Source: Pirellulales bacterium (GTDB taxonomy: Bacteria > Planctomycetota > Planctomycetia > Pirellulales > JAICIG01). From it: DNA of 64,000 bases. The stretch spans positions 50,292-114,291 of the forward strand of contig DATLUO010000081.1 of the NCBI GenBank assembly GCA_035533075.1, written 5' to 3'. Numbering within the stretch: the stretch's first letter is position 1; each line of letters opens with the position of its first letter. The translations under genes and the position numbers were made by a program. Shown piece after piece: positions 140 to 64,000 of this stretch. Below the pieces are notes generated by a model. The model ran no database searches. It saw nothing but the letters and a program-made list of their open reading frames with translations, and was not told the DNA's origin.

Positions 140-585
140 CCGATGAACTGATCGCCCTAATCATGGCGTCGACACATTTGCTCGCGCGTGCTGGTGCCGC
201 TGGGCCGTCGCCTGGTCGGCGATTGTCACCGTGGCTGCGGAAGCCGTCACGCTACACTTGCGCCTCGGCTGGGAGCTGACCGCGGTCGAGTTCAACAAGA
301 ACGCGCCGCTCGTCTTTCAAACCCACCACATGTTTTGGAGCGTGCCGCTGATCGCCCTGTTGTCTCTCTGATGGCGGCGGCCGAGACGCAGCGGCGCACT
401 GGTGGGGCTAATATAGCGTGGAACGGTCAGCCTCAAGAATCGGATTAAAGGGGCCAGGGCTGGTAAAAACGACATCGTCACGTATCGCAAGACTTGTCAG
501 GTGGCGAATCGTGAGCGACGTTTTCGTGGCGCGCGAGTTTGTGCTCGTCGGCTGCCACGTTCCATGACCTTGACGTCGGAGGGAG

Positions 586-885
586 ATGGCGATGCGTTGG
601 CTCTTGCTGGCTTCGATCGTGGTCCTTGCTCTCGGGGCGGCGGACAGCGCCCATGGCGACTGGCGAACCTACGGTACTGCCAATCGCATCAGCCCCGACG
701 GCGTCTGGCAGAGGGGCTACGGGCGGATGGGCTACGGCTGGTACAGCGCCTACGGCGATTACATCGGCAACGACTACAGTTGGATCAATTTCCGCTATCG
801 CAACCGGTCGTCTGGTTTCAATTTCAATCGCACGGACAACTACGGCTTCCCCGGCCCACGGACCAACGGCTCTCGCGCGCGTTGA
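586..885 (+). CDS. Small secreted Gly/Tyr/Trp/Asn-rich protein (99 aa), unknown function
   Basis: ATG is preceded by ggaggga. N-terminal signal peptide is MAMRWLLLASIVVLALGAADSAHG. The mature part is low-complexity and aromatic-rich (YGWYSAYGDYIGNDYSW). A paralog-like gene lies at 12747-13064. Confidence 0.55.
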   Translation: MAMRWLLLASIVVLALGAADSAHGDWRTYGTANRISPDGVWQRGYGRMGYGWYSAYGDYIGNDYSWINFRYRNRSSGFNFNRTDNYGFPGPRTNGSRAR

Positions 886-979: not shown

Positions 980-2281
980 TCACCTCTTGGCTTCGCGAAT
1001 CAAGCCCTCGATGATCGGCGTAAGATCCCCGCCGTGTTCCTTGTAGCGAATGACCCCTTTCGCGTCGAGCAGATAAATTGTCGGCCAGGCGTCGACATGC
1101 CAACGAGTGCAGATGGCGCCGTCGCGGCCGCCGTCCCACCAACAGTGCCAGGTGATTTCGCCGCGGCGGACCGCCTCGCGCAGAGTGTCGACCTTCTCGT
1201 CGCCGCTGACGCTCAACAGGACGAACGGTTCGTTGCGCCACTTTTCTACCGACTCGCGCTCGGCGGGATACGCCGCAACGCAAGCGCCGCACCAGTTCGC
1301 CGAGAACGTCAAGCAGACGACCTTGCCGCGATAGTCGCTCAGCCGGAACACGACTCCGCCGGCATCCTTGCCTTCGATTTCGGGTGCTTGGCAACCGACT
1401 TGCAAATGCTCGATGGCAAACAGCATCCCTTCGGCCGCTTTGGCGTAGGTCTTGTCGGGCGACGGCGCGCTCGTCAAGCGAATCCGCGAACCGGCCGCGA
1501 GCTGATACTCGGGGTAGCTCACGTCGGCGAATTCCGCCGTCAAGCGCTTGAGCAGTTGCTGGGCCTCGCCCACGTATCTCTCCGGCGGCTCCGAAGTCAT
1601 CGACTTCATATAGGGAATCGTCACGAGCAACCAGAAGCGGCGCCATGTCGCATCGTCTTCGGTCTCGGTGCTGCGAATCCGGTCCGCCAGTTTCGACCGC
1701 TCGTACAGATAGCATGCCAGATAGTAGCAGGCCGCGGCCCGCACTTCGCGGTGCGGGCTCTTGTCAAGAGCGGCGCGCAGCAAGGCTTCGGCCTTCGCCG
1801 CTGGAACCACCCAATGCACCTTGACAAGTGCCTGGTCGAGCTCTCGGTCCTCGATATGCCTGCGGAGGGCCAGTTCGAGGGCGCGCTCCTGGACTTGCCA
1901 GGCGGGCGATTCCGGATCGCTGGAATTGCCCAAGGCATGGCACAAGGCCGGTACTGCCACGCGGGGATCGGGCTCGCGTTCGGCAAGGGCCAGGAATTCA
2001 GCGGCCATCATGTTTTGCGGCTGCCGTCGCTGATCGTCGCGGATGCAAGCTAAAAACTCGGCATCGGTCAGCCTGGCGAGAAAGGAATCGGTCCTTTCCT
2101 TGTGCGTCTTCAGGTCCTCCCGCGAGTCGTTCTCGAACTTCTGATAGACTTGCTCCAACTCCTCGAGATGGCGTTTGACTTGGTTGCCGGGCTCCTCGGC
2201 GGCACTGGCGTGCAAGACACCGGCGAAAAGAAAACCGGCTCCTAGGAGGCAAAGCATGAAGGTGCTTTTGCACGGCCGCAT
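980..2281 (-). CDS. Secreted TlpA/ResA-like thiol-disulfide oxidoreductase with an N-terminal helical domain
   Basis: Signal peptide MRPCKSTFMLCLLGAGFLFAGVLHASA starts at the Met at 2281 (the ORF is open to 2356). C-terminal redoxin motif is LTFSANWCGACVAAYP (WCxxC). Last gene of the blaI-blaR1 operon on the minus strand. Confidence 0.8.
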   Translation of the reverse strand: MRPCKSTFMLCLLGAGFLFAGVLHASAAEEPGNQVKRHLEELEQVYQKFENDSREDLKTHKERTDSFLARLTDAEFLACIRDDQRRQPQNMMAAEFLALAEREPDPRVAVPALCHALGNSSDPESPAWQVQERALELALRRHIEDRELDQALVKVHWVVPAAKAEALLRAALDKSPHREVRAAACYYLACYLYERSKLADRIRSTETEDDATWRRFWLLVTIPYMKSMTSEPPERYVGEAQQLLKRLTAEFADVSYPEYQLAAGSRIRLTSAPSPDKTYAKAAEGMLFAIEHLQVGCQAPEIEGKDAGGVVFRLSDYRGKVVCLTFSANWCGACVAAYPAERESVEKWRNEPFVLLSVSGDEKVDTLREAVRRGEITWHCWWDGGRDGAICTRWHVDAWPTIYLLDAKGVIRYKEHGGDLTPIIEGLIREAKR

Positions 2282-2437
2282 TGGAATCTCCATGAATGAG
2301 AGCGAGGCGGAGACGGGGCACATTGCAGATCTACCGGGCGCATCCGAGAAAAGCAAGGGGATGGGTGCTTGTGGGACCCCTCGGTTAGCATAGCCCGCGT
2401 AAGCACCAGCCAGCCGGAAAACATGCCCGGTTGACTT

Positions 2438-4417
2438 TCAAAACGCCTCGATCCAGCTTTGCTGCGAGGCTTGCGTGAATGGAACGCGCAGAAGTACCTT
2501 GCCCGAGGGAGCGAGCTGCAAGACTTCTGAATCGCACGAGACCCAAACGGCGCCGGTCGTGGGACTGACGGCGACTTTGTAGGCCGTCATCGGCACCGGC
2601 TCGCCCACCTCGCCCGCGGCCGAAATAAATCGCACGCCGTCGCGCCGCCCCGCAACCCAGGCGCCGCCCATCTTCGGCACGCAAGCGACGCTGAACACCT
2701 CGAACTCGCCTAATTCCGTCTTATGTCGAACGCCGCCGTCGGCGTTCAGCAGCCAGACGCGGTTCTTGCTGCGAGGAATGTCGGGATGAGAGCGCTCGGT
2801 CAGCCAGACGCTGCCGTCGTTCGGGTTCACCGACAGCGAGGCGCAGCACCAGCCGTCGACCCGCTGGCGAAACAACACTTTCCCTTCGCGGCTGAGCTTG
2901 ATGGTTTCATAGCCGGCCAGCCAAAAGGCGTCGTCGTGAGGATCGTAGGCCAGGTCGATGGCGAGGAAAGGATAGGCGGCAACTTCGTTCCCCTCAGGGT
3001 CGGAGACGAGGGTCTCGCCGTCGTTGAGCCGCTGCCCGCCGCTCGTCCAAAGATTGCCGGTCTTGGCGTCGACCGCCAGCGCATCGGCCTCGACCTGCTC
3101 AATTTGCCAGAGTTTTTGCCCGTCGATAGCGAACGCCACGATCCGGTTGGCGACATTCTCTCGGACATAAATGCGCTCTCGCTGCCGGTCGACGGCGACC
3201 CCATTTACTCCACCGACCGTCTTGCAGCAGTTGAAGCCCGTCGCCGACCAAAGCTCGTCGCCGCTGCTCGAGAGCAGCCGCAAAGCGTCGTGGTGCGGTT
3301 TCGTGTTATCGTAATCCGGATCGGCGTCGTCCAGCAGCACGACTGCGGGCTTTTCGGGCAGCGGTTTCGCGGCGCCCGTCGGCTCGAAGCGCGTGATTGG
3401 GAAGCGGGCGAACGGCCGCCCGGCGTTGTCGAACAGCTTGTCGTCGGCCAAGGCGGCGGCCACGGCCTTGCGCAGCTCCTCGCCGCGCAGGTTCCTGGCC
3501 AGTACGCGGCCGTCGGGGGCGATCAAAAACGTGCCGGGCAAGCTGCGCACCGTGTAAGCGGTCGCCACGTGGCCATTGGTGCCCCCAGCGAAACCCTGCC
3601 GCCAGGGAAGCCGCTTTTCATCGACGTAGCGCTTCGCCACATCAGGCGTGTTGTCGCAGGACAGGCTAATGAGCGCAAACCGCGGATCACCGCCGAACTC
3701 GTCGTACAGTTTTTCGAAGGCGGGAATCTCAGCCAGGCACGGAGCGCACCAGGTGGCCCAAAAATCGAGGAGCACCAGCTTGCCGCGCAGTTTGCTCAGG
3801 CGCAACGACCCGCCCGAAAGCTGCTCGACTACAAAATCGGGCGCCAGCTCGCCCGCGTCGAGCGTATCGAACAGCACGGCCTCGATCTGGCCCAGGTCGA
3901 GCGGTTCGTCGCTTCGTCCGCCGGGCACCTCGGGCACGGTGAATTCGAGTTCGGCGCGGCCGATCTCCGTGCCGACGCCGTAGGCACTCGGTGAGGGCGG
4001 GTTGGCGATGGGAACCCTTAGCTTATAGGCGCCGGCCGGCACATCGGTTATTTCAAAGTGGCCATTTTCGTCCAGTTTTGACAGATACCTCGCGGAGGGC
4101 CAGGCATAGGCGCGCTTGCTCGCGTCCCAAGCGATTATTGCGACGGGATTATTCGTTTCCCAATCAATCCCGAGCTTGTTCTTATCGGTAAGCATTACGG
4201 AACCGACGACGGTCCTGCCCCTGCCGCCGATCATGATCTTCGTAATCCGTCCTGGGCGGATATCGACGGGCGCCTGCCAGGCGTACCACCGCATTGAACT
4301 ACCAAGATAACTGGTGACGACGACTCTGCACACCGAACCCTTGCCGGGAATGACACGGTCGATGGTGAATCGACCATTTTTGTCACTCTTGAGTTGGTAA
4401 TCTTGGAAACCGTACAC
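2438..4417 (-). CDS. TlpA-like thioredoxin domain plus C-terminal beta-propeller-like region; probably the distal part of the upstream BlaR1-like gene
   Basis: Redoxin motif LLDFWATWCAPCLAEIP. The N-terminus (YGFQDYQLKSDKNGRFTIDRVIPG) is the second half of a carboxypeptidase-regulatory-like module. GTG start at 4417 is in the same frame as ORF 4421-7378 and only one sense codon after its TAA. Confidence 0.75.
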   Translation of the reverse strand: MYGFQDYQLKSDKNGRFTIDRVIPGKGSVCRVVVTSYLGSSMRWYAWQAPVDIRPGRITKIMIGGRGRTVVGSVMLTDKNKLGIDWETNNPVAIIAWDASKRAYAWPSARYLSKLDENGHFEITDVPAGAYKLRVPIANPPSPSAYGVGTEIGRAELEFTVPEVPGGRSDEPLDLGQIEAVLFDTLDAGELAPDFVVEQLSGGSLRLSKLRGKLVLLDFWATWCAPCLAEIPAFEKLYDEFGGDPRFALISLSCDNTPDVAKRYVDEKRLPWRQGFAGGTNGHVATAYTVRSLPGTFLIAPDGRVLARNLRGEELRKAVAAALADDKLFDNAGRPFARFPITRFEPTGAAKPLPEKPAVVLLDDADPDYDNTKPHHDALRLLSSSGDELWSATGFNCCKTVGGVNGVAVDRQRERIYVRENVANRIVAFAIDGQKLWQIEQVEADALAVDAKTGNLWTSGGQRLNDGETLVSDPEGNEVAAYPFLAIDLAYDPHDDAFWLAGYETIKLSREGKVLFRQRVDGWCCASLSVNPNDGSVWLTERSHPDIPRSKNRVWLLNADGGVRHKTELGEFEVFSVACVPKMGGAWVAGRRDGVRFISAAGEVGEPVPMTAYKVAVSPTTGAVWVSCDSEVLQLAPSGKVLLRVPFTQASQQSWIEAF

Positions 4418-4420
4418 CAG

Positions 4421-7378
4421 TTAGGGATGCGCGCGTTCGCGAACAAACGCCACTTCGCATTCCGGAGCGAGCTTTCTCCCCATCGCGACGAGCCCCTCGA
4501 TGCGGCCCCACGGTTCGAGCACGATCGGGGCGTCGGGTTTGAATTCGCTATGGAGCCGCTCGGCATAGCCTTCGTCGTGAACAATCACCAGCAGGAACGG
4601 CTCGTCGCCCTGAGGCGGAAACGCGAAGCGACCGTCGGCGCCAGTTTTGACGACGTCGGCCTGGTTTTGATGCCGGTCGAAGTTTCCCGACTTCAGAACA
4701 GCACGATTCTGTTGCGTCGCCAATCCCACCTCGGCACCCGCTGCCGGTGAACCATCGGCGAGCAGTACGACGCCGGTCGGCCCGTTGCCCGGTTTCAACT
4801 CGAGGTCGAAGCTTTGCTTTCCTTCCGTCGAGCGGAAAACACGGGAGGTGGCCGGCAAATAGCCGTCGGCGACCACTTGCAACACATGGCCTTCCATCGG
4901 CTCGTCGAACTTGATGTCGTACTCGCCCTTTTCAAACAGCGTCGGTTCGTCGCGCGACCACGACACGTCGTCTCGGTTCGCGGACCGCCAGCCGTGACGC
5001 AGGCGGAACTTCTTGACGGGCTGATGCGAGACGGCATCGGTCACTCGGCCGCCGATCGTCAGCTCCGGGTAAAGCGTGACCTTGTGCGTTTCGGCCGAAG
5101 CCGCCAGCGGCGTTCGCCGCGCCGACATATAGCCGCTCTTGAGCAGGTCGAACAAAACGGCGTCGTCCGGCGCTGAGCGAAACACGGCCTTTCCCTGAGC
5201 GTCAGTCCGCGCGCTCAGCTTCAGCGTGCGATAGCCGCGCCAGGTATCGCTGACCACCCATACCTCGTTGAGGGCCTTGCCGTTTACGTCCGTGACCTGA
5301 ACGCTCAGCGTGTGGCCCGGTTGCAACTCAAATCGCAAATCTTTGGTCTCTTCGCTGAGGGCCAGCTCCTGGAACGTGGGTGAAAAGCCTTCGCCCTGCA
5401 CCGTGACCAGCGATCTGCCCGGCTTGCAGTTCTTCAAGACGAACCGCCCCTGAGCGTCCGTCGTTGCTTCGGGCTCGTTCGTGCCGAAGCGGCTGAAGCC
5501 CAGCCGCGCCTGAGCCCCTGCAACGGCCTTGCCATCTCGATCGACCACTTGCCCTGCCACTTGCAGGCCCTGCTTGAGCACAGCCACATTGCTTAGGCCT
5601 CGATTGGCTGTCGAGTAGCCCGACAAATAATCCGCATGCTCAACGCGAATGCCGACCGCGCCGATGTCGGCTGGCGCATCATCCCAAGTCCAATGGCCGT
5701 CGGCATCCGTGTTGAGCGTGGCCGCCGTGAACATGTAATTCGCCAGCTTCGGCCAAGTGACGGGCATGGAGACATCGAGCGAGGCGCCCGCGATCGGCCG
5801 GCCTTTTTCGTCCTCGACCATGCCACCGATTTGTGTGCCTTCATCGAAACGCAGGTCGATGCGCGCCGGCATTTCGATCTTCTGCTGCTCGCCGCGCCAG
5901 ACGTGATGAATCGAAACGAAGCCAGCCTTGGCGGCCGTCATCCAGAGGTGATTGATCTCTTCCTTGGCCGGCCAGGTCAGCCGCGCTTGGCCATCGCGGT
6001 CGGTCGTCACGAATTGATTGAAGTTCTGCCCGCCGATTCGGCCGCCGAACCGCAGGCCCGCGCCGGCCAGTGGCTCGTCCGTGTCGGCGCTGACCGCTTG
6101 AATCAACGTCGTTTGATTCGTCTTGTCCGGCGCGTTCGGCTCGGTCTCCTTGGCGGCGTGGTTGTTCTCGGTTTTGCTCGCCGTCGCCTTGTCGGGCGAC
6201 TGCCGCGCGGCGGTGGGCGGTTCGGCGATCGTTTCGCTGATGGTGAGGCCGCCCCACAGCAAGCTGGCGGCGGCGACCACGGCAACCGCCGCGGCCACTC
6301 GCCATTTAGGCAAACTTATGATTCCGGTTTGCCGCCGCATCGCCTCGATGCGGTGCAGGACGCGAGAGCTGCGCGCCATCGCCAGGCCGACCACTTTGGG
6401 CTGCTCCGCAAGGCGCAACGCGAGGCGCGCCAAGATGCAAACATAGAAATCGGCGTCTTTGATGCAGCCGGCGGCCAACGCGTCGCAGACGTAGTCGCAA
6501 GCATCGACATGTGCCCGCCGCGCCAACCAGATGAGCGGGTGAAACCAGAGCGCGATCGACAGCGCGTGCAGCAGCAGATTGAACGCGGGATCATTCCCCT
6601 TCAGGTGAGCGAGCTCATGCGCCAGAATCGCGCCCAGTTCCTCGCGTCGCGCCGCCTCGCATTGGCACGAAGGCAGCAAAACGAGCGGTCGCCAAACACC
6701 GATCAGGCACGGCGTTGCGAGGCGCTTGGTCTGTACGATCCGAAAGGCACGCCGCAGTTGCAACCGGGCGGCCGCAACGGTCGCTTCACCGGCCACCCAG
6801 CCGGGCACGGCGAACGAGTCGGTCCTGATAAGGCGCAGGCGGACAATTCCGACCGCCGTCCAGAGAATACCGACCAGTGCGCCGATGGACCAGCAAGTGA
6901 GCGCCAGAGCAGCCAGCGACAAGGTCCGCGGCGCCAGGTGGGCGGCCGTTGTTTCAGCGCGTTCGCCCGTCGCGTCGCAAGCGTCGTCTGAAGACGGCGG
7001 TTGGCCGGGGGGGCCGTGATCTGCACTCGTCCCTTCCTGGGCGATGGCCGGCGCCTGCCGGGCCGCGGCGCCTTCGCTCGCCGGAGGCGGCGTGGTGCGG
7101 GCCGCCGTGAATGAAACGTCGCGCATTGTTTCGCCGGCGTCAAGGTGTGTGGATTCGATGGCACTGGTATTTTCCATCGCCTGTCGCGGCCGCAACAGGC
7201 GGAGATTCACCAGCGGCGGAGCGAGCGACAATGCCGCCACGGCGAGCATTGCCAGCGCCGTCATCCGCCAAACGAGCACGCGCCAACGTGGATTCGAGCG
7301 GGCCAGGATGGCATGAAATATCCAGGCCATTGCCAGCACGACAGTCACCTTGCTTAGCAGCACCAGCGTCGCGTTCAT
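4421..7378 (-). CDS. BlaR1/MecR1-family M56 membrane metalloprotease sensor with a long array of carboxypeptidase-regulatory-like repeats
   Basis: N-terminal TM helices. HEXXH zinc motif in ILAHELAHLKGNDP. Repeated G-x-V-x-D-x-x-G-K/R-P...TD-x-x-G-x-F modules. ATGA start/stop overlap with the upstream BlaI gene. Confidence 0.85.
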   Translation of the reverse strand: MNATLVLLSKVTVVLAMAWIFHAILARSNPRWRVLVWRMTALAMLAVAALSLAPPLVNLRLLRPRQAMENTSAIESTHLDAGETMRDVSFTAARTTPPPASEGAAARQAPAIAQEGTSADHGPPGQPPSSDDACDATGERAETTAAHLAPRTLSLAALALTCWSIGALVGILWTAVGIVRLRLIRTDSFAVPGWVAGEATVAAARLQLRRAFRIVQTKRLATPCLIGVWRPLVLLPSCQCEAARREELGAILAHELAHLKGNDPAFNLLLHALSIALWFHPLIWLARRAHVDACDYVCDALAAGCIKDADFYVCILARLALRLAEQPKVVGLAMARSSRVLHRIEAMRRQTGIISLPKWRVAAAVAVVAAASLLWGGLTISETIAEPPTAARQSPDKATASKTENNHAAKETEPNAPDKTNQTTLIQAVSADTDEPLAGAGLRFGGRIGGQNFNQFVTTDRDGQARLTWPAKEEINHLWMTAAKAGFVSIHHVWRGEQQKIEMPARIDLRFDEGTQIGGMVEDEKGRPIAGASLDVSMPVTWPKLANYMFTAATLNTDADGHWTWDDAPADIGAVGIRVEHADYLSGYSTANRGLSNVAVLKQGLQVAGQVVDRDGKAVAGAQARLGFSRFGTNEPEATTDAQGRFVLKNCKPGRSLVTVQGEGFSPTFQELALSEETKDLRFELQPGHTLSVQVTDVNGKALNEVWVVSDTWRGYRTLKLSARTDAQGKAVFRSAPDDAVLFDLLKSGYMSARRTPLAASAETHKVTLYPELTIGGRVTDAVSHQPVKKFRLRHGWRSANRDDVSWSRDEPTLFEKGEYDIKFDEPMEGHVLQVVADGYLPATSRVFRSTEGKQSFDLELKPGNGPTGVVLLADGSPAAGAEVGLATQQNRAVLKSGNFDRHQNQADVVKTGADGRFAFPPQGDEPFLLVIVHDEGYAERLHSEFKPDAPIVLEPWGRIEGLVAMGRKLAPECEVAFVRERAHP

Positions 7379-7891: not shown

Positions 7892-8127
7892 TCAGCTCCG
7901 CTGCAGGCGCAGTCCTTTGGGGACCAGCCAGCGCTCGGCCGCCTCGAACAAACCCTGCGTGACGATCGCCAGCAGGGCGGCCGGCACGGCGCCATCCAGA
8001 ATCAGGCCGACGTCGTCCAAGCGAATGCCGCTGAGGATCGGTTGTCCGTAGCCGCCGGCGCCGATCAAGGCGCCGGGCAAGCGGACGTCTGCCGAGCTTT
8101 CAGAAGACCGCTCATTCGTCGTTTTCA
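7892..8127 (-). pseudogene. 3' fragment of an osmoprotectant (OpuBB/ProW-type) ABC permease gene
   Basis: The translation ends [53 protein letters not shown], which matches the conserved C-terminus of glycine-betaine/choline ABC permeases. Only ~60 homologous residues are present and there is no N-terminal membrane domain. Confidence 0.5.
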
Positions 8128-8271
8128 TTCTGGTTCGCCTGCCCGGCCATCCCTTGCACGGCCGCCGGAGCGGAAGTAGAAACGGTTCACAAGGATTCGC
8201 TCCAGCGAGGCGGCGAGGCATGATATCCGATCTACCGGGCCGCTTCTTTTTTTTGGGAGGAGAAAAACGCG

Positions 8272-8665: not shown

Positions 8666-9454
8666 ATGGATTCTCGTTCTCACAACCGTGCCGCGTGGAA
8701 CAAAAAGGCCGAAGAACACGACCGGTGGACAGTGCCGGTCAGCAGCGAGGCCATCGAGCAGGCCCGCCACGGGCAGTTTCGCATTCTCCTGACGCCGACG
8801 AAGCCGGTGCCGATGGCCTGGTTCCCGCTTCTGCAAGGGACGCCAGCGCTGTGCCTGGCCTCCGGCGGCGGACAACAGGGGCCGTTGCTCGCCGCAGCCG
8901 GTGCCGTCGTGACCGTGTTCGACAACTCGCCGCGGCAGCTTGAACAGGACCGGTTTGTCGCCAAGGGCGAGGGCCTCGCGATCGAAACCGTCGAGGGCGA
9001 CATGCTTGACCTGTCGGTGTTTGCGGATGAAACATTCGAGCTGATCGTGCATCCCTGCTCGAATTGCTTCGTGCCGGCAGTCCGGCCAGTTTGGCGCGAG
9101 TGCTTTCGCGTGCTTCAACGCGGCGGCGTGCTGCTGGCCGGCTTCGTGAATCCCGTTCGCTACCTCTTCAACGCGGACGAAATCCAGAACGGTAATTTGG
9201 CGGTTTGCCACCGGATTCCCTACTCCGATCTTCGCGATCTGGACGGCGCCGAGCTGCGGCGGATCGTCGTCGACCCAGGTGCGCCACTCGAATTCGGCCA
9301 TACGCTGAACGACCAAATCGGCGGGCAGCTCGATGCGGGTTTTTTGCTCACCAGCGTCTACGAGGATCATTACGCCGAGACCGACGGCGATCCGCTGTCG
9401 CGCTACATCGACAGCTTCATGGCCACGCGTGCCATCAAGCCGCATCGTGCGTGA
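8666..9454 (+). CDS. Class I SAM-dependent methyltransferase
   Basis: Motif I-like [28 protein letters not shown], then FELIVHP and [11 protein letters not shown]. Typical Methyltransf_11-type layout. Confidence 0.75.
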
Positions 9455-9755: not shown

Positions 9756-10133
9756 ATGTCTCTCTCCCGTGGTGACATTGTTCTGGCGGAACTGCCCTAC
9801 GTTCTGGCGGAACTGCCCTACAGTGATCGCAGCGGGGTGAAAGTGCGGCCGGCACTTGTCGTGCAAAACGACCTCAACAATCGCCGCCTCCAGGACGTCA
9901 TTCTCGCGCTCATCACCAGCACGACGCGCCGCGCCTCGCTGGAACCGACCCTGCTTTTGATCGACATCACGGCCCCCGATGGCAAACAGGCCGGGCTTCT
10001 ACACACCTCCGCCATCAAGTGCGAACACCTGATCACGCTGCATCAGCGATTCGTCAAGCGCGTCATCGGCCGCCTGCCGCGGGCAGTCATGCAGCAGGTC
10101 GACGGTTGCCTCAAGGTTTCGCTTGGCATTTAA
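9756..10133 (+). CDS. MazF/PemK-family endoribonuclease toxin carrying an internal 7-aa tandem duplication
   Basis: RGDIVLAELPY...VKVRPALVVQND...ITS...IKCEHL is a PemK-like pattern. Paralog at 45913-46263. Contains the 21-bp tandem duplication at 9780-9821. Confidence 0.75.
   Translation: MSLSRGDIVLAELPYVLAELPYSDRSGVKVRPALVVQNDLNNRRLQDVILALITSTTRRASLEPTLLLIDITAPDGKQAGLLHTSAIKCEHLITLHQRFVKRVIGRLPRAVMQQVDGCLKVSLGI
9780..9821 (+). repeat. Perfect 21-bp tandem duplication (2 copies) inside the mazF-like gene
   Basis: gttctggcggaactgccctac occurs at 9780-9800 and again at 9801-9821. It is in frame and duplicates VLAELPY. Confidence 0.95.
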
Positions 10134-10142
10134 TCGCTTTCC

Positions 10143-10208
10143 CCAAGTCTCGGCGTTGATCGCCAGTCGTTGGAGAATCGGCCGCAAGTCCTCAGGAATC
10201 GCGGCGCT
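10143..10208 (-). other. Possible relic of a transposase-like C-terminal segment (no intact gene)
   Basis: Minus-strand translation is SAAIPEDLRPILQRLAINAETW. From memory, this ILERL-x-I-x(4)-W type motif occurs in C-terminal regions of IS200/REP-associated Y1 transposase-like proteins. No catalytic domain is present. Confidence 0.2.
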
Positions 10209-10495
10209 TATCCGAGCGGATCTGCCGCCCAGTGCAATCGAGCAAGGCCAGCTAATCGTCGAGCGACAGCGGCAAGAAGCCGCGGTCCGACGCTCGTGCG
10301 GCCGGGCATTTAGGCATAGCGTCGCCCGCAGATTGCGCTGCATTGCTGTCCCGGACGGACTTAACCATCCGTCTCGCGCAGTGTCGGGGGGTAGAGGCTT
10401 CGCGGCAAAACGTCTCATTCTCGGCTGCGTGAACTATAAATCCGTCTGGCCGTCAGGCCTGGGCACGCTTCCGCGGCATCGTGGGGCGTACGGAC

Positions 10496-17496: not shown

Positions 17497-17849
17497 CCGG
17501 CACCGGCGCGGCCTTGCGGGGGACTGTTGGACGGCGATGCCGCCGAGACAGCAAGCGACCGCCAGAATGGCCACAAGCAACGCTCGCAAGCTGAACCGAA
17601 AACCGTCGGGGCATGGGTCAATCGTTAGGTCCGCAAAGCCTTTCTGGTAAAGTCCTTGCACCGACAGCGAATTGCCCCGAAAAGACCGGCTTGACGCAAG
17701 CCTAGTGGCCGCTAGACTTTAAGCGGCGCTGGACTTGCCCAGATTGCGCAATTTGCGAACGTTTCGCCTGCTTGGCTGGTCCAGTGGTGCCCAGCTGACC
17801 GAAGTAGATGAAGGGAGTCGGTGCGCGCCCTTGGAACCTCTGTGATCGT

Positions 17850-19211
17850 ATGTTCAAGTCAATTCGCCTACAGAACTTCAAGTCGTACAAGGACAGCGGC
17901 GAAATACCGCTTGCACCTCTAACCGTTCTTGTTGGGCTGAACAACTCTGGCAAGTCATCCATTTTGCAGGCAATTCTTGCGCTTAAGCAAACCGCTCTGG
18001 ATAGTGCCAGCGTTGCCCCAAATCGGCCGGCCTTTATATCTACCGGGAGCTATGCCACGCTCAATGGATTTTATGATATCTTGCACAAGCCCCAAACGGA
18101 AGCGTCTTTTTCGATTTCTCTTGAGCTTGACAAGACCGAAGAACAAAGCTTCATATCCGGTGGAGATCGCCCGGAAACGAGACAAGCTTGGAAAGTGCCT
18201 ATCGCCAACAAGCTGGATGTATCGTTCTGCCTTGGGGCTGAAACAAAGGAAATCGAAGTTGAGCGTTCCGTTTTGACGCTCAATGACGAGAAGATTCTTG
18301 AATACCAAAGGAACGGACACGTCGCCTGGAGCTCTGACAAGTTTCCATTCTCCACGGAAGGCGCTGGGGTTTTTCTCAGAGGATTCACACCGGCGCTGGT
18401 CGCGTTGCCCACGGGAACGCCAAACCCCGGAACTGGTGATTTCTTTACAGCGCTTCAACAGATATCCGCTCATAGCTACATGTGGATTACATGGCTTGGC
18501 AGCAGGGTTCATCGTGTCGGTGCCATAAGAACAAGGGTTCCATACACAACGAGCGTTGGCGTCAGAACGCCGCCTGAATTTGGGCTTGGTGGCGAGAACC
18601 TGCTGGCAGCACTTGCGAACGAAGAACGGCGCGGTCCAGCGAATAGGACTCTAGTAGATGAGGTAAACGACTGGCTCTCAAAGACTAGAATTCTCAACAA
18701 AGTCCACCTGAAAACAGATAAGGCGAACAATGTGCGCATGCTTTTAGGCGACGAAATGAGGGGGGGCCCATCAGACATCAATGTTGCGGGAATGGGGGAA
18801 GGCATTTCGCAGATACTCCCCATTATCGCCCTAGCAGTTTCCGTAAATCCTCGTCATTGCCTGTTGATCGAACAACCTGAGATTCATTTGCACCCTGCGT
18901 TACAAGCAGACCTTGCCGACCTGTTTATAAGCGTATCTGGGGAGCACGATCGGCAAGTAATCGTTGAAACTCACAGCGAACACCTAGTCTTGCGGATTCG
19001 CCACAGGATTGCTTCTGGAACGCTTGACCCACAAAACGTCAGAATTCTTTTTGTTGAAAAGTCGGCTGGCGAGAGCACGGTAAGACCACTCGACGTCAGT
19101 GATACTGGCGAGGTCACTAACTGGCCAGATGGCTTTTTTGATGAAGCCTACAGTGAAGCAATGGCGATGGTAGAGGCGGCTGCAAAGAGGAGAGCGACGA
19201 GTGCCCATTGA
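17850..19211 (+). CDS. ABC/OLD-type P-loop ATPase with DUF3696-like C-terminus (AAA_15/AAA_21-like), no nuclease domain
   Basis: MFKSIRLQNFKSY... Walker A is GLNNSGKSS (K35). Signature-like GMGEGISQILPI. Walker B/D-loop CLLIEQPEIHLHP. H-loop VIVETHSEHL. C-terminal NWPDGFFDE. Lies in a low-GC island; a hand count of 18061-18120 gives 24/60 GC. Confidence 0.8.
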   Translation: MFKSIRLQNFKSYKDSGEIPLAPLTVLVGLNNSGKSSILQAILALKQTALDSASVAPNRPAFISTGSYATLNGFYDILHKPQTEASFSISLELDKTEEQSFISGGDRPETRQAWKVPIANKLDVSFCLGAETKEIEVERSVLTLNDEKILEYQRNGHVAWSSDKFPFSTEGAGVFLRGFTPALVALPTGTPNPGTGDFFTALQQISAHSYMWITWLGSRVHRVGAIRTRVPYTTSVGVRTPPEFGLGGENLLAALANEERRGPANRTLVDEVNDWLSKTRILNKVHLKTDKANNVRMLLGDEMRGGPSDINVAGMGEGISQILPIIALAVSVNPRHCLLIEQPEIHLHPALQADLADLFISVSGEHDRQVIVETHSEHLVLRIRHRIASGTLDPQNVRILFVEKSAGESTVRPLDVSDTGEVTNWPDGFFDEAYSEAMAMVEAAAKRRATSAH

Positions 19212-19653
19212 AGATTTGACACTTGACGTGAACGTCCTCATAAGCCACAATAAGAGCAATATCCCGTGCGAGGATAAGCACCGGAATCTCATGAAGGCGT
19301 TTGAATCGCTAGTGTTTCTGGCGCTCGATGATGCTGGCCATATCAAGCAACTCTACGTTAATCGACTCGGCTCAAATTCCCTTGCAACAAAATGGCTTGC
19401 GAGCCTAGCAAGTAAATCTCGCATCCATCTTTTTCCGTTGGGGAGAATCCCGAAGCCACTCAAAGTCAAGTTTGACGAGACGGGTTTTCACTGGGCGGAC
19501 GACAAGTATGTTAGGCTCGCTATGATGACGCCGGACAAGCACTGGGTCACCGAAGATACTGGAATAAACGCGAGTCACAGAAAGCTTATCTCTGACCACG
19601 TGGGCGTGACGACTCACGACACGCAGTCTGCTTGCGATCTTCTTGGTATTTGA
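19201..19653 (+). CDS. PIN-like nuclease domain protein (150 aa)
   Basis: GTG start overlaps the ATPase stop by 11 nt. LTLDVNVLI (D9) is the canonical PIN strand-1 motif. Further acidic positions are LALDDAG (D43/D44), WADDKYVRLAMMT (D100/D101) and VTEDTG (D119), at PIN-like spacing. Low GC. Confidence 0.55.
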   Translation: MPIEDLTLDVNVLISHNKSNIPCEDKHRNLMKAFESLVFLALDDAGHIKQLYVNRLGSNSLATKWLASLASKSRIHLFPLGRIPKPLKVKFDETGFHWADDKYVRLAMMTPDKHWVTEDTGINASHRKLISDHVGVTTHDTQSACDLLGI

Positions 19654-19799
19654 TGTTCGGTGAACCATATCTCGTGATCGACGTCCATATCGGTCATGAA
19701 ACTTTTTCTGCTTTAAAGCGAACAATCCGGCAACACGATGGAGAGCGGTCCGCGCCTTCGCGGCGCAGCGGCCTTATAAACCGCGTTAGGGGCGGGAGC

Positions 19800-20675
19800 A
19801 TGCTTGTTTGGCGACTTCTCCTGGGCGCGGTCTTCATCGGCGGCATCACTGTGCTTTGCTGGCTCGATTACCACGCCGCCACGCCAGGCGTCTGGCTGTT
19901 TCCGTTGGCGGTGCTGTTGGCCATGCTGGCCAGCGAAGAATTGCTCTCGATGCTGGCGGCTCGCGGCTTGCGGCCGGCGGCTTGGGCCATCTACGCCGGC
20001 AATGTTGCGATCGTGGCGGCCAATTGGGTCCCGCACGTCCCAGCGCTCGTCATTCCTGTCGGGGCCTTCGATGCTCCGGCGGTCGCCTTCGCCCTCTCGT
20101 TGCTGGTGGTCTTTCTCGCTGAGATGGTGCGGTATCGAGAGCCGGGACAATCGACGGTGCAGCTTGCCACGGCTGTGCTCGCGCTGGCCTACGTCGGCTG
20201 GCTGCTCACGTTCCTCATCGAGTTGCGGTTCGCGGGTGGTGCCCGGCTCGGCATGGCGGCGCTGGCCTCGCTGATCGTAGTGGTGAAGATGTGCGACATC
20301 GGCGCCTATACGGTGGGCCGCTTGATCGGGCGGCACAAGATGTCGCCACGACTCAGCAGCGGCAAAACCATTGAAGGGCTGGCCGGCGGACTCGCTTTCG
20401 CTTGCCTCGGATCGTGGTCCGCTTTCCACTGGATTGTGCCGGGCTTGGGCGGCCTGGGCGGGCCGGTTCCCGTCGCGACGTGGCTCATCTTTGGATTGGT
20501 GGTCGGCATTGCGGGCGTGCTGGGCGATCTGGCCGAATCGCTGCTGAAGCGTGACCTGGGCTGCAAAGACTCCAGCCAGTGGATGCCCGGCTTCGGCGGC
20601 GTGCTCGACGTGATCGACTCGCTGCTGCTGGCGGCGCCGGTGGCCTATATGCTGTGGTGTTGGCTGGTGGTGTAG
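19800..20675 (+). CDS. cdsA: Phosphatidate cytidylyltransferase
   Basis: Multi-TM protein. SGKTIEGLAGGLAFACLGS and DSSQWMPGFGGVLDVIDSLLLAAP form the CDS signature. Start is taken at MLVWRLLLGAVF; the ORF is open from 19632 into the low-GC island. Confidence 0.85.
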   Translation: MLVWRLLLGAVFIGGITVLCWLDYHAATPGVWLFPLAVLLAMLASEELLSMLAARGLRPAAWAIYAGNVAIVAANWVPHVPALVIPVGAFDAPAVAFALSLLVVFLAEMVRYREPGQSTVQLATAVLALAYVGWLLTFLIELRFAGGARLGMAALASLIVVVKMCDIGAYTVGRLIGRHKMSPRLSSGKTIEGLAGGLAFACLGSWSAFHWIVPGLGGLGGPVPVATWLIFGLVVGIAGVLGDLAESLLKRDLGCKDSSQWMPGFGGVLDVIDSLLLAAPVAYMLWCWLVV

Positions 20676-58918: not shown

Positions 58919-59428
58919 TTATTCGGCCCGTAGCTGGCCTCGTGAGAGGTCAGGCCGTGGTGAACAAAAAAACTTGGTTGACTTCCCGCTTTCGGGCCGG
59001 ACTCGGTTGTTGTGCAACCAGCCGGCGTACCGACGCACGCGTGTCCGCACGTTGCGTTGCGGAAAACAACGCCGTCGTTGCGGCGAGCTTGCAACGCAAC
59101 TCGCATGGATGGCGGGTCTTCCAACAATCTTGAGGCCGCCTTGAAAAAAACCGGCCGCAACCACCGTGATGGAGAGTAGGCCGGCGATCCAGCCTTCGAC
59201 CTCGGCGACGATTTTGGCCACGCGTTGCCGTGAGATGCCGTAATCCGCGGCCGGGGCGTCTTCCGTTTCGCCGTCGAGCACATGTCGCTCATAGATGCGG
59301 CAATCGCGGGGGTTGGGCGCTCGGCGGCCGTTCGTGGCGTGTGCCGGCGCGCCGGGGCTTGCATCGGCGTTTTCTTTGGCGGCGGTGCCGCCCTTTCGTC
59401 GCGGTTTTTTCACGGGAGGGTCATTCAT
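58919..59428 (-). CDS. Hypothetical protein with sigma-region-4-like HTH; 3' extent doubtful
   Basis: RDCRIYERHVLDGETEDAPAADYGISRQRVAKIVAEVEGWIA. The distal half runs through a structured region (gttgcgttgc...gcaacgcaac at 59051-59100) and may not be coding. Confidence 0.3.
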   Translation of the reverse strand: MNDPPVKKPRRKGGTAAKENADASPGAPAHATNGRRAPNPRDCRIYERHVLDGETEDAPAADYGISRQRVAKIVAEVEGWIAGLLSITVVAAGFFQGGLKIVGRPAIHASCVASSPQRRRCFPQRNVRTRVRRYAGWLHNNRVRPESGKSTKFFCSPRPDLSRGQLRAE

Positions 59429-59632
59429 GGCCTGTTCTTCTTTGTTGAAATGCGATGCGCGGGGTTGGTTCACACCATTACGGCACGCTCCGTCGGCCTC
59501 AAAGCTTCCCGCGTTCTACCTGCCGGTTGGCTTGGGACGTGCAAAGTAAGCGTCACGCCCGGCGCGACGACCGGCCCGCCGTGACTCAGAGGAGGTGTAA
59601 CTGGTCGCTGGTCCGATCGGTGGCGCTGGCCA

Positions 59633-59650
59633 TGGCGCAAATTTGCGCCA
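59633..59650. promoter_or_regulatory. Operator-like perfect palindrome 1 (TGGCGCAAATTTGCGCCA)
   Basis: 18-bp perfect palindrome with core GCAAATTTGC. It is followed about 12 nt later by aaaacgcggcggattt. Confidence 0.5.
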
Positions 59651-59719
59651 GTGGGAAAAACGCGGCGGATTTTGCGATGTCATAGACCACAGGTGGGGTT
59701 TCGTGCTCGGCTGGGCGCA

Positions 59720-59745
59720 CGGTCTTTGCAAATTTGCAAAGACCG
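59720..59745. promoter_or_regulatory. Operator-like perfect palindrome 2 (CGGTCTTTGCAAATTTGCAAAGACCG)
   Basis: 26-bp perfect palindrome with the same GCAAATTTGC core, 91 nt centre-to-centre from palindrome 1. It is followed by aaaacacggcggattt. Confidence 0.5.
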
Positions 59746-60041
59746 CAAAACACGGCGGATTTGGGCATGGGATACCTCAAAGCAGCGGACGTCGCGGTGG
59801 TTCCGCGTTCGCCAGTCCCCGTGAGCGCTCGCCTTGGACGACTACGGTCGCCGTTGATCTTTCCTGACTGTAGCCGGCGGCTGGCTTGCTTCCGCTCCGC
59901 GGCGCGGAAGGATCCCGTCTTCAACATCCGATGCTCAGAACTTAGGCACAGATGCGTACACATGCACACTTAATAGGCAGTCCCGTCGGAACCCTCTACT
60001 AAGGTATGAGACGTCAAAAAACGCCGGCAAAGTCCCGTTAT

Positions 60042-60053
60042 TGCAAATTTGCA
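60042..60053. promoter_or_regulatory. Operator-like palindrome 3 (TGCAAATTTGCA)
   Basis: 12-bp perfect palindrome with the same core, followed by cgaacgaggcgcggcgcggcttttt. Confidence 0.4.
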
Positions 60054-60436
60054 CGAACGAGGCGCGGCGCGGCTTTTTCGCTCCGATCGTCAGCTTTCAC
60101 GAGCAAGTTGGGCCGCCACCTTTCCTGCCGAATCGGGATTGATCCTGCCCGCGGTCCGACGCAACGCCATGATAGCAGCACGCGACCACCGGTCGCCGAG
60201 TTGTTCGGGCCGATTTTCACTTTCAGGGCCTTCGCTTCGGCGAGCTCGCCTTCGGCTAACGAATGCACTCGCGGGTTCGTCGTCTTAAGCTCTGGCGATC
60301 CTTGAAAATCGGACCCGCCCGTTTCGTCGCCCGTTTTTCTTCGCTAGTCTTGACCAAGGCGCTGGGCCAGGATACTCTTATAGAAAGAGTTCTCTTCTAA
60401 CAAGAGTGTGACCTTTGGGAAATCTGGAGTACCGCA

Positions 60437-61072
60437 ATGAATGAAGCAAATATGGAGCGTGTGCGCGAAGACCTGGCCGTTATGAAGCAAGCCATGGGAC
60501 TTCATCTGCCCTTTCAGCGTGACCACGTTTGGGCCTGTCTTGCGCTGGCTGTCGTTGGGATCGTCATGGCGGCAGTCACGGCTTTCACGCGCATCGCCGC
60601 CGTGCCGGTCACGCAAGGCTCGTTGGCCCATCTGAGTTACATCGCCTTCGTCGTCGTTCCCGTCCTGTTGGTCATCATTGGCCTGGGCGTCGTGTCGTAC
60701 CGTCGAAAAGCACTCGCGCCCTTGCTGTGGCGTGAATCCCGGACGACGGCGGTCGTCGCCACTGTCGCTGTGCCCGTGTATCTCAGTTTCCTTGCCTGGG
60801 CCGTATCGAGGGGCATCTCGCCGGCAGCTTTGACGGCTGCAACTCTTTTCCTCGCAGGACTATTCTGCCTCCTGCGTGCGCTGTCCGAACCGGGCCGGCT
60901 GTACGTTCTTGGTTGGGCCGTGTCAACGATGCTGGCCGGTGCGTGCGCTCCGTTGGGGAACTACGGCAACGCAGGCATTCTTGCGGGTGCTTGGCTGCTC
61001 GTCGGGGGCCTCTTCACGGCGGGAATCATGGCCTGGCAACTGCGCCGCAGGGGTGCTCAGGATGACCGTTGA
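60437..61072 (+). CDS. Integral membrane protein (5-6 TM), unknown function
   Basis: Hydrophobic segments throughout (ACLALAVVGIVMAAVTAF, IAFVVVPVLLVIIGLGVV, and others). Overlaps the downstream regulator gene by 11 nt. Confidence 0.55.
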   Translation: MNEANMERVREDLAVMKQAMGLHLPFQRDHVWACLALAVVGIVMAAVTAFTRIAAVPVTQGSLAHLSYIAFVVVPVLLVIIGLGVVSYRRKALAPLLWRESRTTAVVATVAVPVYLSFLAWAVSRGISPAALTAATLFLAGLFCLLRALSEPGRLYVLGWAVSTMLAGACAPLGNYGNAGILAGAWLLVGGLFTAGIMAWQLRRRGAQDDR

Positions 61073-62842: not shown

Positions 62843-62872
62843 ACCGAAAATGGCAAGTGCAAGACCCCGATA

Positions 62873-62905
62873 CTTTCGTCGGACTGCCGAAGAGCCGGCA
62901 ATCCG
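62873..62905 (+). repeat. 33-nt direct repeat, left copy (flanks the vapBC cassette)
   Basis: ctttcgtcggactgccgaagagccggcaatccg is identical to 63871-63903. Degenerate similarity continues for a further ~40 nt. Confidence 0.9.
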
Positions 62906-63091
62906 GGCCGTTCGGTCGGCGGCCGGCTTGCTCGCTCGGCGACGGCCTGACCCGCTATGCTGAATCGTGCGAGCGGCCCCAGGCCCACCGGCGACGACGC
63001 ACCGTGCGCACCGAGTAGCTCCGTTTCAATGCGCTCGGCAATGGCATAAAATGGAACCGTCGTAAACGAGGATTGGCCTGGAGGCATTAAG

Positions 63092-63388
63092 ATGACGTTT
63101 CAACTTGACTTGCCAGTCGACTTACAGGAGCGATTGCGTTTCGAAGCCGAGCGCCGCGGAGAACCGGCGGAGGCGGTGGCCTTACGGGTGCTTGACGCGC
63201 ACCTGCCGCCGCGGCCAGACATTCGCCGCGCTGCCGCGATTGCCATGCTCGATCGGTGGCGGGAGGAAGACGCCGCCGCCACGGAAGCAGATTCGCGACA
63301 GGCGGAGGATTTCTTTCATGCTCTTGACGCCGCGCGGACGTCGAACCGTCCCCTCTTTCCGCCAGAGCTTGAAGGAATCTCCTGGTGA
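63092..63388 (+). CDS. VapB-position antitoxin (RHH-like N-terminus)
   Basis: MTFQLDLPVDLQERLRFEAERRGEPAEAVALRVL. 4-nt overlap (GTGA) with the PIN gene. Confidence 0.65.
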   Translation: MTFQLDLPVDLQERLRFEAERRGEPAEAVALRVLDAHLPPRPDIRRAAAIAMLDRWREEDAAATEADSRQAEDFFHALDAARTSNRPLFPPELEGISW

Positions 63389-63834
63389 AGCCGATCGTCT
63401 TGCTTGATTCGGGGCCGCTCGGCCTGTTGTGCCACACGCGGCGATCATCGATCACGGTGGCGTGCGAACAGGGGCTCGCGGCTCTTCTCTCGGCGGGGCG
63501 GCGGATTCTCGTACCGGAGATCGCCGACTATGAGCTGCGACGGGAGCTGTTGCGAAGCGGCAGGCAGGCTGCCATCGCGCGGCTTGACGCCATGGCGCAA
63601 GCCACGGAATATCTGGCGATCACAACGCCGGCCATGCGCCGGGCCGCCGAACTTTGGGCGCGGGCCCGTCAACAGGGTCAACCCACGGCCGCCGACAACA
63701 CCGTCGACGGCGACGTCATCCTTGCCGCTCAAGCACTGACGCTGGGCACGCCCGATATCGTCGTCGCCACGACCAATGTTGGCCATTTGTCCCGCTTCGT
63801 TTCCGCCGAACTCTGGCAGGCGATCCTTCCCTAA
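63385..63834 (+). CDS. vapC: PIN-domain toxin (VapC-like)
   Basis: IVLLDSGPL (Asp), VPEIADYELRRE (Glu), DGDVILAAQAL (Asp), VVATTNVGHL. Confidence 0.75.
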   Translation: MKPIVLLDSGPLGLLCHTRRSSITVACEQGLAALLSAGRRILVPEIADYELRRELLRSGRQAAIARLDAMAQATEYLAITTPAMRRAAELWARARQQGQPTAADNTVDGDVILAAQALTLGTPDIVVATTNVGHLSRFVSAELWQAILP

Positions 63835-63870
63835 GCGTCACTAAAGCGGCAGCCGTGGAAGACATCCATG

Positions 63871-63903
63871 CTTTCGTCGGACTGCCGAAGAGCCGGCAAT
63901 CCG
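63871..63903 (+). repeat. 33-nt direct repeat, right copy
   Basis: Identical to 62873-62905. Begins 37 nt after the vapC stop. Confidence 0.9.
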
Positions 63904-64000
63904 CGCCGTGCGGTGGCTGGCCGCCGTACTCGGCCCGCGACGCTTGACAGGCTGGCTCAGCCCGGTGCCCGATGAAAACGCAGACGCAATCGGCCGCTGC

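Follow-up and report, generated by a model that had tools for sequence, protein, structure and literature searches.

The window analysed here is a 64,000-nt stretch of the Pirellulales contig DATLUO010000081.1, in which an earlier note had singled out the region 59480-60436 for three palindromes and a scarcity of open reading frames (ORFs). At this locus (locus tags VNH11_11080 to VNH11_11090, with near-identical contigs present in several metagenomes) we find an array of palindromic modules beside the remnant of a gene for a helix-turn-helix (HTH) protein fused to a FokI-type nuclease (HTH-FokI). The remnant and the array comprise the following features:

58919-59428, minus strand: HTH-FokI gene remnant, of which only residues 2-77 (the HTH, encoded at 59180-59407) are homologous to the intact protein
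59629-59705, plus strand: module M1, with an 18-nt perfect palindrome at 59633-59650
59656-59673, plus strand: A-tract and box of M1, AAAAACGCGGCGGATTTT
59680-59685, plus strand: TCATAG element of M1
59692-59698, plus strand: G-run of M1, GGTGGGG
59719-59795, plus strand: module M2, with a 26-nt perfect palindrome at 59720-59745
59747-59762, plus strand: box of M2, AAAACACGGCGGATTT
59771-59775, plus strand: GATAC element of M2, followed by a purine-rich run
59781-60010, no strand assigned: block B, a conserved non-coding spacer of ~230 nt between the convergent M2 and P3
59985-60061, minus strand: module P3, inverted and diverged, with the imperfect 24-nt dyad CGTTatTGCAAATTTGCAcgAACG at 60036-60059

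The three perfect palindromes are where the note had placed them and can be read directly from the window sequence: TGGCGCAAATTTGCGCCA at 59633-59650, CGGTCTTTGCAAATTTGCAAAGACCG at 59720-59745 and TGCAAATTTGCA at 60042-60053. The core GCAAATTTGC occurs in three exact copies in the 64 kb, all within this region, against 0.18 expected, and 0 of 100 dinucleotide-preserving shuffles reach three copies; with one mismatch allowed, the core shows no enrichment (4 matches against 2.8 expected), and we found no further copies of the region elsewhere in the window. M1 and M2 point away from the HTH-FokI remnant. Their dyad centres are 91 nt apart, as had been reported, and the box AAAACRCGGCGGATTT follows both, in two zero-mismatch copies at 59657 and 59747 spaced 90 nt. 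The sequence GCGCAATTTGCG at 17746-17757, offered earlier as a one-base-shorter variant, is not a palindrome, has no A-run or box after it and is unrelated to the modules. Separately, around the ATPase gene that the note assigned to an island, the GC fraction at 18001-20000 is 0.51-0.54, against about 0.63 elsewhere.

A strict scan of metagenome contigs for the module pattern recovered three additional loci, each a homologous copy of the whole unit in another genomic context, and our comparison covers five independent loci (the window, L093/L091, L092, L094-096 and L097). Arrays of 2-6 palindromes lie upstream of HTH-FokI homologues at the four other loci (66-96% amino acid identity). Window positions 59489-60073 match L093 5963-6546 at 87% identity, and L094-096 and L097, the more distant by protein (66-69% identity), carry 2-5 perfect palindromes upstream whose arms differ around the shared core (CGGCTTTTGCAAATTTGCAAAAGCCG, GGGTGCAAATTTGCACCC and GAGCGCAAATTTGCGCTC are examples), each followed by an A-rich/GATTT box. 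In L094, an insertion sequence (DDE_Tnp_1/DUF772 transposase) at 1435-3030 is inserted in the array and cuts off the module at 1105-1182 from the HTH-FokI gene.

These comparisons establish, on sequence, a family of modules with rigid geometry. Each begins with a perfect or near-perfect palindrome of 14-26 nt around the invariant core (T)GCAAATTTGC(A), unchanged in 17 sites, flanked by arms, 13 nt at most, whose sequences differ from copy to copy yet remain complementary; the 26-mers all fit CGG-N4-TGCAAATTTGCA-N4-CCG. Downstream of each dyad stand an AAAAC-RCGGCG-GATTT box, a (C)GTAG or ATAC element and a G-rich run. The A-run typically measures 4-5 nt (range 3-6). It begins at a distance of 13-16 nt from the centre of the dyad, exactly 14 nt in 10 of the 14 modules, and 9 nt from the core in most modules (8-11 overall); AAC ends at +19/20 and GATTT at about +27/28 from the dyad, and the (C)GTAG/ATAC element follows 19 nt past AAC, so that spacing within modules is rigid to about 1 nt. 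Two promoter assignments for these elements were rejected on inspection: a sigma-54 promoter (TGGCAC-N5-TTGCA) agrees with some class-A hairpins alone and is one position out in M1, an extracytoplasmic function (ECF)-type AAC...CGT reading has a 19-nt spacing that exceeds the usual one, and both are inconsistent from module to module.

The symmetry of the dyads is maintained by compensatory change. Across 17 palindromes, 9 of the 12 pairs show changes on both sides, with 38 compensatory cells against 3 one-sided ones, and the covariation score of 0.431 compares with 0.175 in shuffles (0 of 500 reach 0.431) and 0.02-0.13 in slid-partner controls. The M1 hairpin is ACGGGTGCAAATTCGCACCCGT at the orthologous position in L093, its arm changes being compensatory; the M2 palindrome is identical in L093 and reads CGGCTatTGCAAATTTGCAcgAGCCG, with two compensated pairs, in L092. 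The 170 stem cells comprise 150 Watson-Crick and 20 non-Watson-Crick cells (G-T 3, A-C 3, other 14), and since G-T and A-C mismatches are equally frequent, which leaves no strand bias, the symmetry is of DNA type, not RNA type.

We built a covariance model, R1, of the whole ~78-nt module and ran it on the arrays and on 80 control loci, which are chance matches of an over-loose 20-base contig-scan pattern and contain the core plus CGGCGGATTT. Array modules score 63-85 bits, including two left out of training (L094 1105-1182 and L093 6194-6270), against ≤22 bits in the controls; M1 and M2 score 75.2 and 77.3 bits. In 172.8 kb of non-redundant Pirellulales DNA, all 16 exact cores lie on the 5′ side of HTH-FokI genes, an exclusive link at the level of sequence. 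The note had proposed a genome-wide motif search; in the 172.8 kb covered here the cores do recur beyond the window, not in generic intergenic DNA but at HTH-FokI upstream regions. This distribution makes it very unlikely that the palindromes are generic dispersed repeats, of the repetitive extragenic palindrome/bacterial interspersed mosaic element (REP/BIME) or miniature inverted-repeat transposable element kind, or ordinary intrinsic terminators clustered by chance: extragenic position, covarying stems and the presence of other repeats (R1, R2) in the region would suit that view, but no copies lie elsewhere in the window or, in the related 172.8 kb, outside HTH-FokI upstream regions, no RAYT/IS200-type gene is associated, and no T-run stands beside M1 or M2 on either strand.

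The third palindrome required reinterpretation. The note had read the plus-strand sequence cgcggcgcggcttttt after it as a looser box. In fact the box (AAAAAACGCCGGC...), the TA element and the G-run of P3 lie to the left of the dyad on the plus strand, that is, 5′ to 3′ on the minus strand, and covariance model R1 gives a full-length minus-strand match at 59985-60061 (30.5 bits), whereas its plus-strand match takes in just the hairpin and scores 19.8 bits. Because the model matches full-length on the minus strand, we conclude from the sequence match that P3 is an inverted, diverged module of the same family. The homologous inverted modules of L093 and L092 reach 34.3 and 44.8 bits respectively, and the outer stem covaries (CCCGTT/AACGGG and CTCGTT/AACGAG). 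Block B, the spacer between M2 and P3, is 86% identical to L093 6256-6483 and 73% identical to part of L092; its indels of 1 and 4 nt exclude coding, and RNAalifold gives it no covariation support. A further conserved non-coding block stands to the left of M1:

59502-59552, plus strand: block AAGCTTCCC..GCCGGTTGGCTTGGGACGTGCAAAGTAAGC, conserved in the alignment with L093 and L092

It has a second copy within the L093 array (5514-5557), and the related sequence TAGCCGGCGGCTGGCTTG occurs at 59871-59888.

Stems that covary could also belong to RNA, and the note had proposed a non-coding RNA locus with repeated modules. The modules would then be small RNAs or 5′ leaders, whose hairpins with a conserved AAAUUU loop act by protein binding or as kissing loops, or M2 and P3 would yield sense/antisense RNAs. 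Such a view could draw on the co-orientation of the modules and on their rigid downstream linear motif, which could include a start site, and on terminators: in L094, terminator-like hairpins with T-runs stand 100-300 nt downstream of the modules, and P3 in the window sits inside an extended A6...T5 hairpin resembling a bidirectional terminator. The A6...T5 flanks and T-run of P3 are, however, absent from the L093 and L092 alignments, conserved terminators were not found among the modules, and terminator-like sites are no commoner than in shuffles. RNAalifold on the 11 complete modules predicts the hairpin as the sole structure and leaves the remainder as a linear motif, the mismatches described above show no strand-specific wobble, and a sigma-70 promoter scan found 0 promoters. 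Rfam 15 at gathering score gave 0 matches in the window or in five homologous loci, and at E≤10 the lone match in 59300-60600 is a chance one of 18 bits. We consider an RNA locus quite unlikely.

Prodigal and PGAP both place a gene across the array:

59586-59768, minus strand: VNH11_11085, a 60-aa hypothetical ORF spanning M1 and M2, in a singleton cluster

The description of the region as ORF-poor therefore needs qualification, since this ORF is annotated; it is, on the other hand, not conserved as a protein. That it encodes a real small protein with an internal repeat, its DNA motifs merely reflecting codons, is scarcely credible. Two gene callers agree on it, a GAGG-like sequence precedes the ATG and the frame is open in L093 too, but the core stands in different reading frames in M1 and M2 (dyads 91 nt and boxes 90 nt apart), two indels relative to L093 move M1 into a different frame with no loss of conservation in the module DNA, and elsewhere the modules are variably spaced and outside any common ORF. 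VNH11_11085 has no Pfam or PHROG match and no homologues, and we judge from these sequence features that it is not a real gene.

On its left the array adjoins what had been described as a small HTH gene at 59428. The HTH assignment holds; the gene itself is a remnant with about 1 kb deleted, not a small intact one. A tblastn search with the full-length homologue P0031 matches amino acids 2-77 at 78% identity, and the remainder of the 58919-59428 ORF is out-of-frame read-through into the 3′ flank of the element. In L093 the gene is intact (385 aa), and window 59179-59392 matches its 5′ end at 92% identity. The remnant is followed by a second block of homology:

59024-59181, minus strand: 3′-flank block of the element, 92% identical to L093 3992-4148, which lies 66 nt past the L093 stop codon

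Because this block matches DNA beyond the L093 stop codon, 992 nt have been lost from the window copy, corresponding to residues 78-385, with the deletion junction at window 59179/59181 equivalent to L093 5140/4148; the loss has placed the 3′-flank block beside the HTH. The block contains the inverted repeat GTTGCGTTGC (59051-59060)/GCAACGCAAC (59091-59100), and the motif TTGTTTTCCGCAA(C/G), on the minus strand in the window, is common to the 3′ flanks of L093, L094, L097 and L009.

With the small window ORF as query, only two weak homologues sharing the N-terminus alone were found; a full-length query recovered ~65 homologues with the FokI cleavage domain PF09254, all named ones from Pirellulales metagenome-assembled genomes (MAGs), several paralogues occurring within single MAGs. 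The intact protein of 350-400 aa has an N-terminal KorA/Mor/sigma-r4-like HTH, a helical/beta middle part and the C-terminal cleavage domain, whose catalytic D...D-A-K motif is conserved (D281-A-K283 invariant, D266 near-invariant). An AlphaFold2 model (pLDDT 78) matches FokI (2fok/1fok) in Foldseek at E 2.5e-5. The HTH superposes on the KorA-operator and ArdK-DNA complexes at about 1.0 Å over 42 residues (Foldseek E about 0.5), and its Pfam matches are below threshold (Mor, E 5e-4; KORA, E 0.11). Among 1.8 billion cluster representatives there is a single full-length representative at 50% identity, and each half occurs with other partners. No relatives of the protein were found in viral contigs, which yielded one chance coding match. 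PADLOC returned no match for the nuclease, and a literature search for the motif yielded only synthetic DNA dodecamers; neither this architecture nor the motif was found described in Rfam, at Pfam level, in PADLOC or in the literature.

Besides the window copy, those of L092 and P0029 are truncated, and contigs frequently break just upstream of the gene, which fits a repeated, decaying unit. A methyltransferase lies near the gene at only one of the five loci, L097. There, on the far side of the array (positions 1-2851), genes for an AAA_16 ATPase and an N6_N4 DNA methyltransferase are read in the direction leading away from the HTH-FokI gene, an arrangement that may reflect an ancestral context of restriction-modification type. 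In paralogues of subclade 2 (about 52% identity; L098, L105), both the recognition helix of the HTH and the repeats upstream of the gene differ, the latter being CGTTGACA direct repeats; this supports binding of the dyad core by the element's own HTH. Two of these repeats adjoin the start codon in L105 and are also present in L098; upstream of the L105 gene there is in addition a ~58-nt tandem repeat, ttcgacccctgccagcttgcctggccggtgaagcagtttggcgggctaagcgcgccagcaggacggagatt, at 3585-3760. Many HTH-FokI genes are flanked by heptanucleotide microsatellites, (GGGTTCA)n/(TGAACCC)n, (GGTAGGC)n/(GGTAGAC)n and (GGATTTT)n (L098 1316-1560, L106 1212-1400, L093 4150-4213, L009 180-230 and L105 3810-3830), and the GGATTTT unit is also the 3′ part of the module box. 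The 5′ part of a group II intron, beginning GTGCG, lies upstream of the paralogue in L100 (~200-760, minus strand; RF02003, 31.7 bits, E 5.8e-5, below gathering score).

In the reading that we favour, with moderate confidence, the region is a cis-acting array of operator/target sites for the dimeric HTH-nuclease that the element itself encodes. The window holds a decayed copy of this multi-copy, Pirellulales-specific unit, and the genetic element is probably selfish. KorA, ArdK and Mor bind palindromic operators as dimers, and cutting by FokI-type domains requires dimerisation. At this locus a repeated, dyad-symmetric, invariant core stands beside a KorA/ArdK/Mor-like HTH gene, as an operator array for a dimeric HTH protein should. 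The core would bind a dimer of the element's own HTH domain and, given its symmetry and the dimerisation requirement of FokI-type domains, the array would serve as operator and/or target, in autoregulation, control of divergent transcription or positioning of the nuclease. We infer both the identity of the binding protein and the outcome of binding, regulation as against cleavage. The Watson-Crick arms are kept at the DNA level, perhaps by cruciform formation, as a single-strand hairpin or through template-switch homogenisation, and a deletion of ~1 kb has stripped the nuclease part from the window gene and left its probable control/target region behind. Among the earlier proposals, an operator array for a dimeric regulator is thus the best supported in outline, but the regulator is fused to a FokI-type nuclease, and the covarying 13-nt arms call for more than recognition by a protein. 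The proposed decayed control region of a mobile element is also supported in substance, residues 78-385 being lost and the unit, which may be mobile, occurring in at least four other contexts.

Several observations weigh against this reading. Recognition by a dimer explains the core, not the complementarity of non-conserved arms out to 26 bp. The likeness of the HTH to KorA/Mor falls below threshold at the sequence level (E 5e-4 to 0.1), and its Foldseek E of about 0.5 is weak. An active nuclease with adjacent cognate sites and, except in L097, no adjacent methyltransferase would be self-destructive unless regulated, and scanning and inspection placed no canonical sigma-70, sigma-54 or ECF promoter in the modules. 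The comparison comprises only five independent loci, and the unit is no more than putatively mobile.

The fused nuclease also invites the view that the modules are DNA cleavage/recombination sites, the protein binding the core and cutting the A-tract at a fixed offset so that breaks drive homing, copying or rearrangement; M2 and P3, inverted relative to each other, would then delimit a segment. The catalytic residues of the FokI domain are conserved, and a multi-copy family with truncated copies in varied contexts resembles the life cycle of a selfish nuclease, and the frequent contig breaks just upstream of the gene also suit this view; intact perfect sites nevertheless persist beside intact genes, which is unexpected for a homing target, and neither ends of the element nor target-site duplications nor empty sites were found. 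The fixed core-to-A-run spacing, mostly 9 nt, together with the usual A-run length of 4-5 nt, recalls the 9/13 cut of FokI, an analogy that is for the present numerology. In a related version the array would be a counterpart of the cos/pac arrays to which small-terminase-like HTH proteins bind; the N-terminal part has weak structural matches to phage small terminases and to phrog_645, but with high root-mean-square deviation and weak E-values, and viral contigs yielded no relatives. We regard cleavage sites as an unlikely explanation, though one to be taken seriously.

An operator/target array of this kind would resemble several known systems in part. With KorA/ArdK-type plasmid repressors and their palindromic operators (for example RK2 OA, GTTTAGCTAAAC) it shares a small HTH of similar fold and a 10-12 bp perfect dyad core at several sites of one genetic element; here, in contrast, the HTH is fused to a nuclease, the sites stand in tandem beside their own gene and not across many promoters, the arms covary out to 26 bp and each site sits in a rigid, asymmetric ~78-nt module. 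The controller (C) proteins of restriction-modification systems with their C-boxes, and the Mu Mor/C activators, offer a second comparison: an HTH protein is associated with a nuclease gene and has palindromic upstream sites, and of the Pfam families Mor matches best, though below threshold (E 5e-4). Activator-dependent promoters, such as the -35-less ones that have Mor/C dyad sites upstream, similarly combine a dyad with a downstream element at fixed distance. C proteins, however, are separate ~80-aa polypeptides with two C-boxes and a partner methyltransferase, whereas here one polypeptide unites HTH and nuclease, the modules number 2-6, a methyltransferase is usually absent and no -10/-35 was recognised. 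FokI and other type IIS enzymes share the C-terminal PF09254 domain and the D...D-x-K motif conserved in full-length homologues (the window copy lacks the domain); unlike FokI, the family has an N-terminal recognition part unrelated to D1-D3, a putative site that is symmetric, and a gene that is multi-copy and decaying in Pirellulales, usually without a cognate methylase.

REP/BIME elements and integron attC sites resemble the modules in that the stem varies, complementarity is kept, a short core is conserved and symmetry is at the DNA level. REP palindromes are dispersed, unlike these, and the modules lack the RYYYAAC/GTTRRRY boxes, the 57-141 nt length, the extrahelical bases, the integrase and the cassettes between hairpins that go with attC. 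We rejected an attC/integron identity for the hairpins, which at 14-26 nt lack RYYYAAC/GTTRRRY cores and adjoin an HTH-FokI gene and not an integrase, and also for a second repeat in the region, the R1 repeat, which does not fold as a hairpin.

Two features lie to the right of the array:

60107-60274, plus strand: R1 repeat, ~165 nt, which ends the shared unit outside the palindrome array
60350-60436, plus strand: promoter/operator and 5′ untranslated region of the membrane-protein/HTH_34/hydrolase operon

In L093 the R1 repeat is present in 4-5 copies of 87-89% identity, in the same orientation and spaced 1-1.4 kb (6678-6846, 8064-8222, 9020-9181 and 10059-10218), and between them lie a RES-domain toxin gene and antitoxin-like ORFs, a layout resembling a cassette array. 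R1 folds no better than shuffled sequence, and no integrase was seen at the L093 array. Just ahead of the operon -35, a long and very stable plus-strand hairpin at 60182-60345 (dG -67.5 kcal/mol, z -3.4, 18% of the ensemble) pairs R1 with unique sequence, its right arm being present in one L093 copy only (10059-10332).

The operon promoter has a -35 TTGACC at 60350-60355, a -10 GATACT/TACTCT at 60371-60378 and a dyad, AAGAGTTCTCTT, at 60385-60396. Operon and promoter are conserved in L005, L006 and L007 (54-69% identity), all without the GCAAATTTGC motif, so the array is not part of the operon or of its winged HTH protein, and the link to the 61062 protein that had been suggested is unsupported. 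Consequently the region 59480-60436, previously treated as one unit, keeps the array and loses 60350-60436 to a separate promoter/operator. In these relatives TTGACC ... TATACT/GATACT is followed by AAGAGTTCTCTT..AAGAG (L005 ~5906-6000, L006 ~5933-6000, L007 ~700-762), and through this dyad the HTH_34 protein probably regulates its own operon. Immediately past the hydrolase gene, 88-nt direct repeats at 62857-62944 and 63855-63942 (82% identical), each holding an imperfect hairpin GGACTGCCG..CGGCAATCC, flank a toxin-antitoxin-like pair at 63092-63388 (no domain) and 63385-63834 (PIN domain at the Pfam cutoff).

A bolder and improbable extension joins these elements: bound as a dimer at the GCAAATTTGC dyad, the HTH-FokI protein would cleave the flanking A-tract a set distance away, and the breaks would drive copying of the unit or exchange of toxin-antitoxin cassettes delimited by the R1 repeat. 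If true, this would be an undescribed selfish/defence element with cruciform-capable targets, an integron- or homing-like system built on a restriction-type nuclease and not on a recombinase.

For the window itself the biological importance is modest, because its copy is a remnant. The analysis bears on annotation, in that a spurious 60-aa ORF has been placed over the array and a truncated gene annotated as an intact hypothetical protein, and it turns an anonymous 950-nt ORF-poor stretch into a searchable 78-nt cis-element tied to an uncharacterised HTH-FokI gene family. If the HTH binds the dyad, members of this family would be naturally occurring counterparts to engineered FokI fusions, and the candidate recognition site of each, 10-12 bp long, would lie beside its gene.

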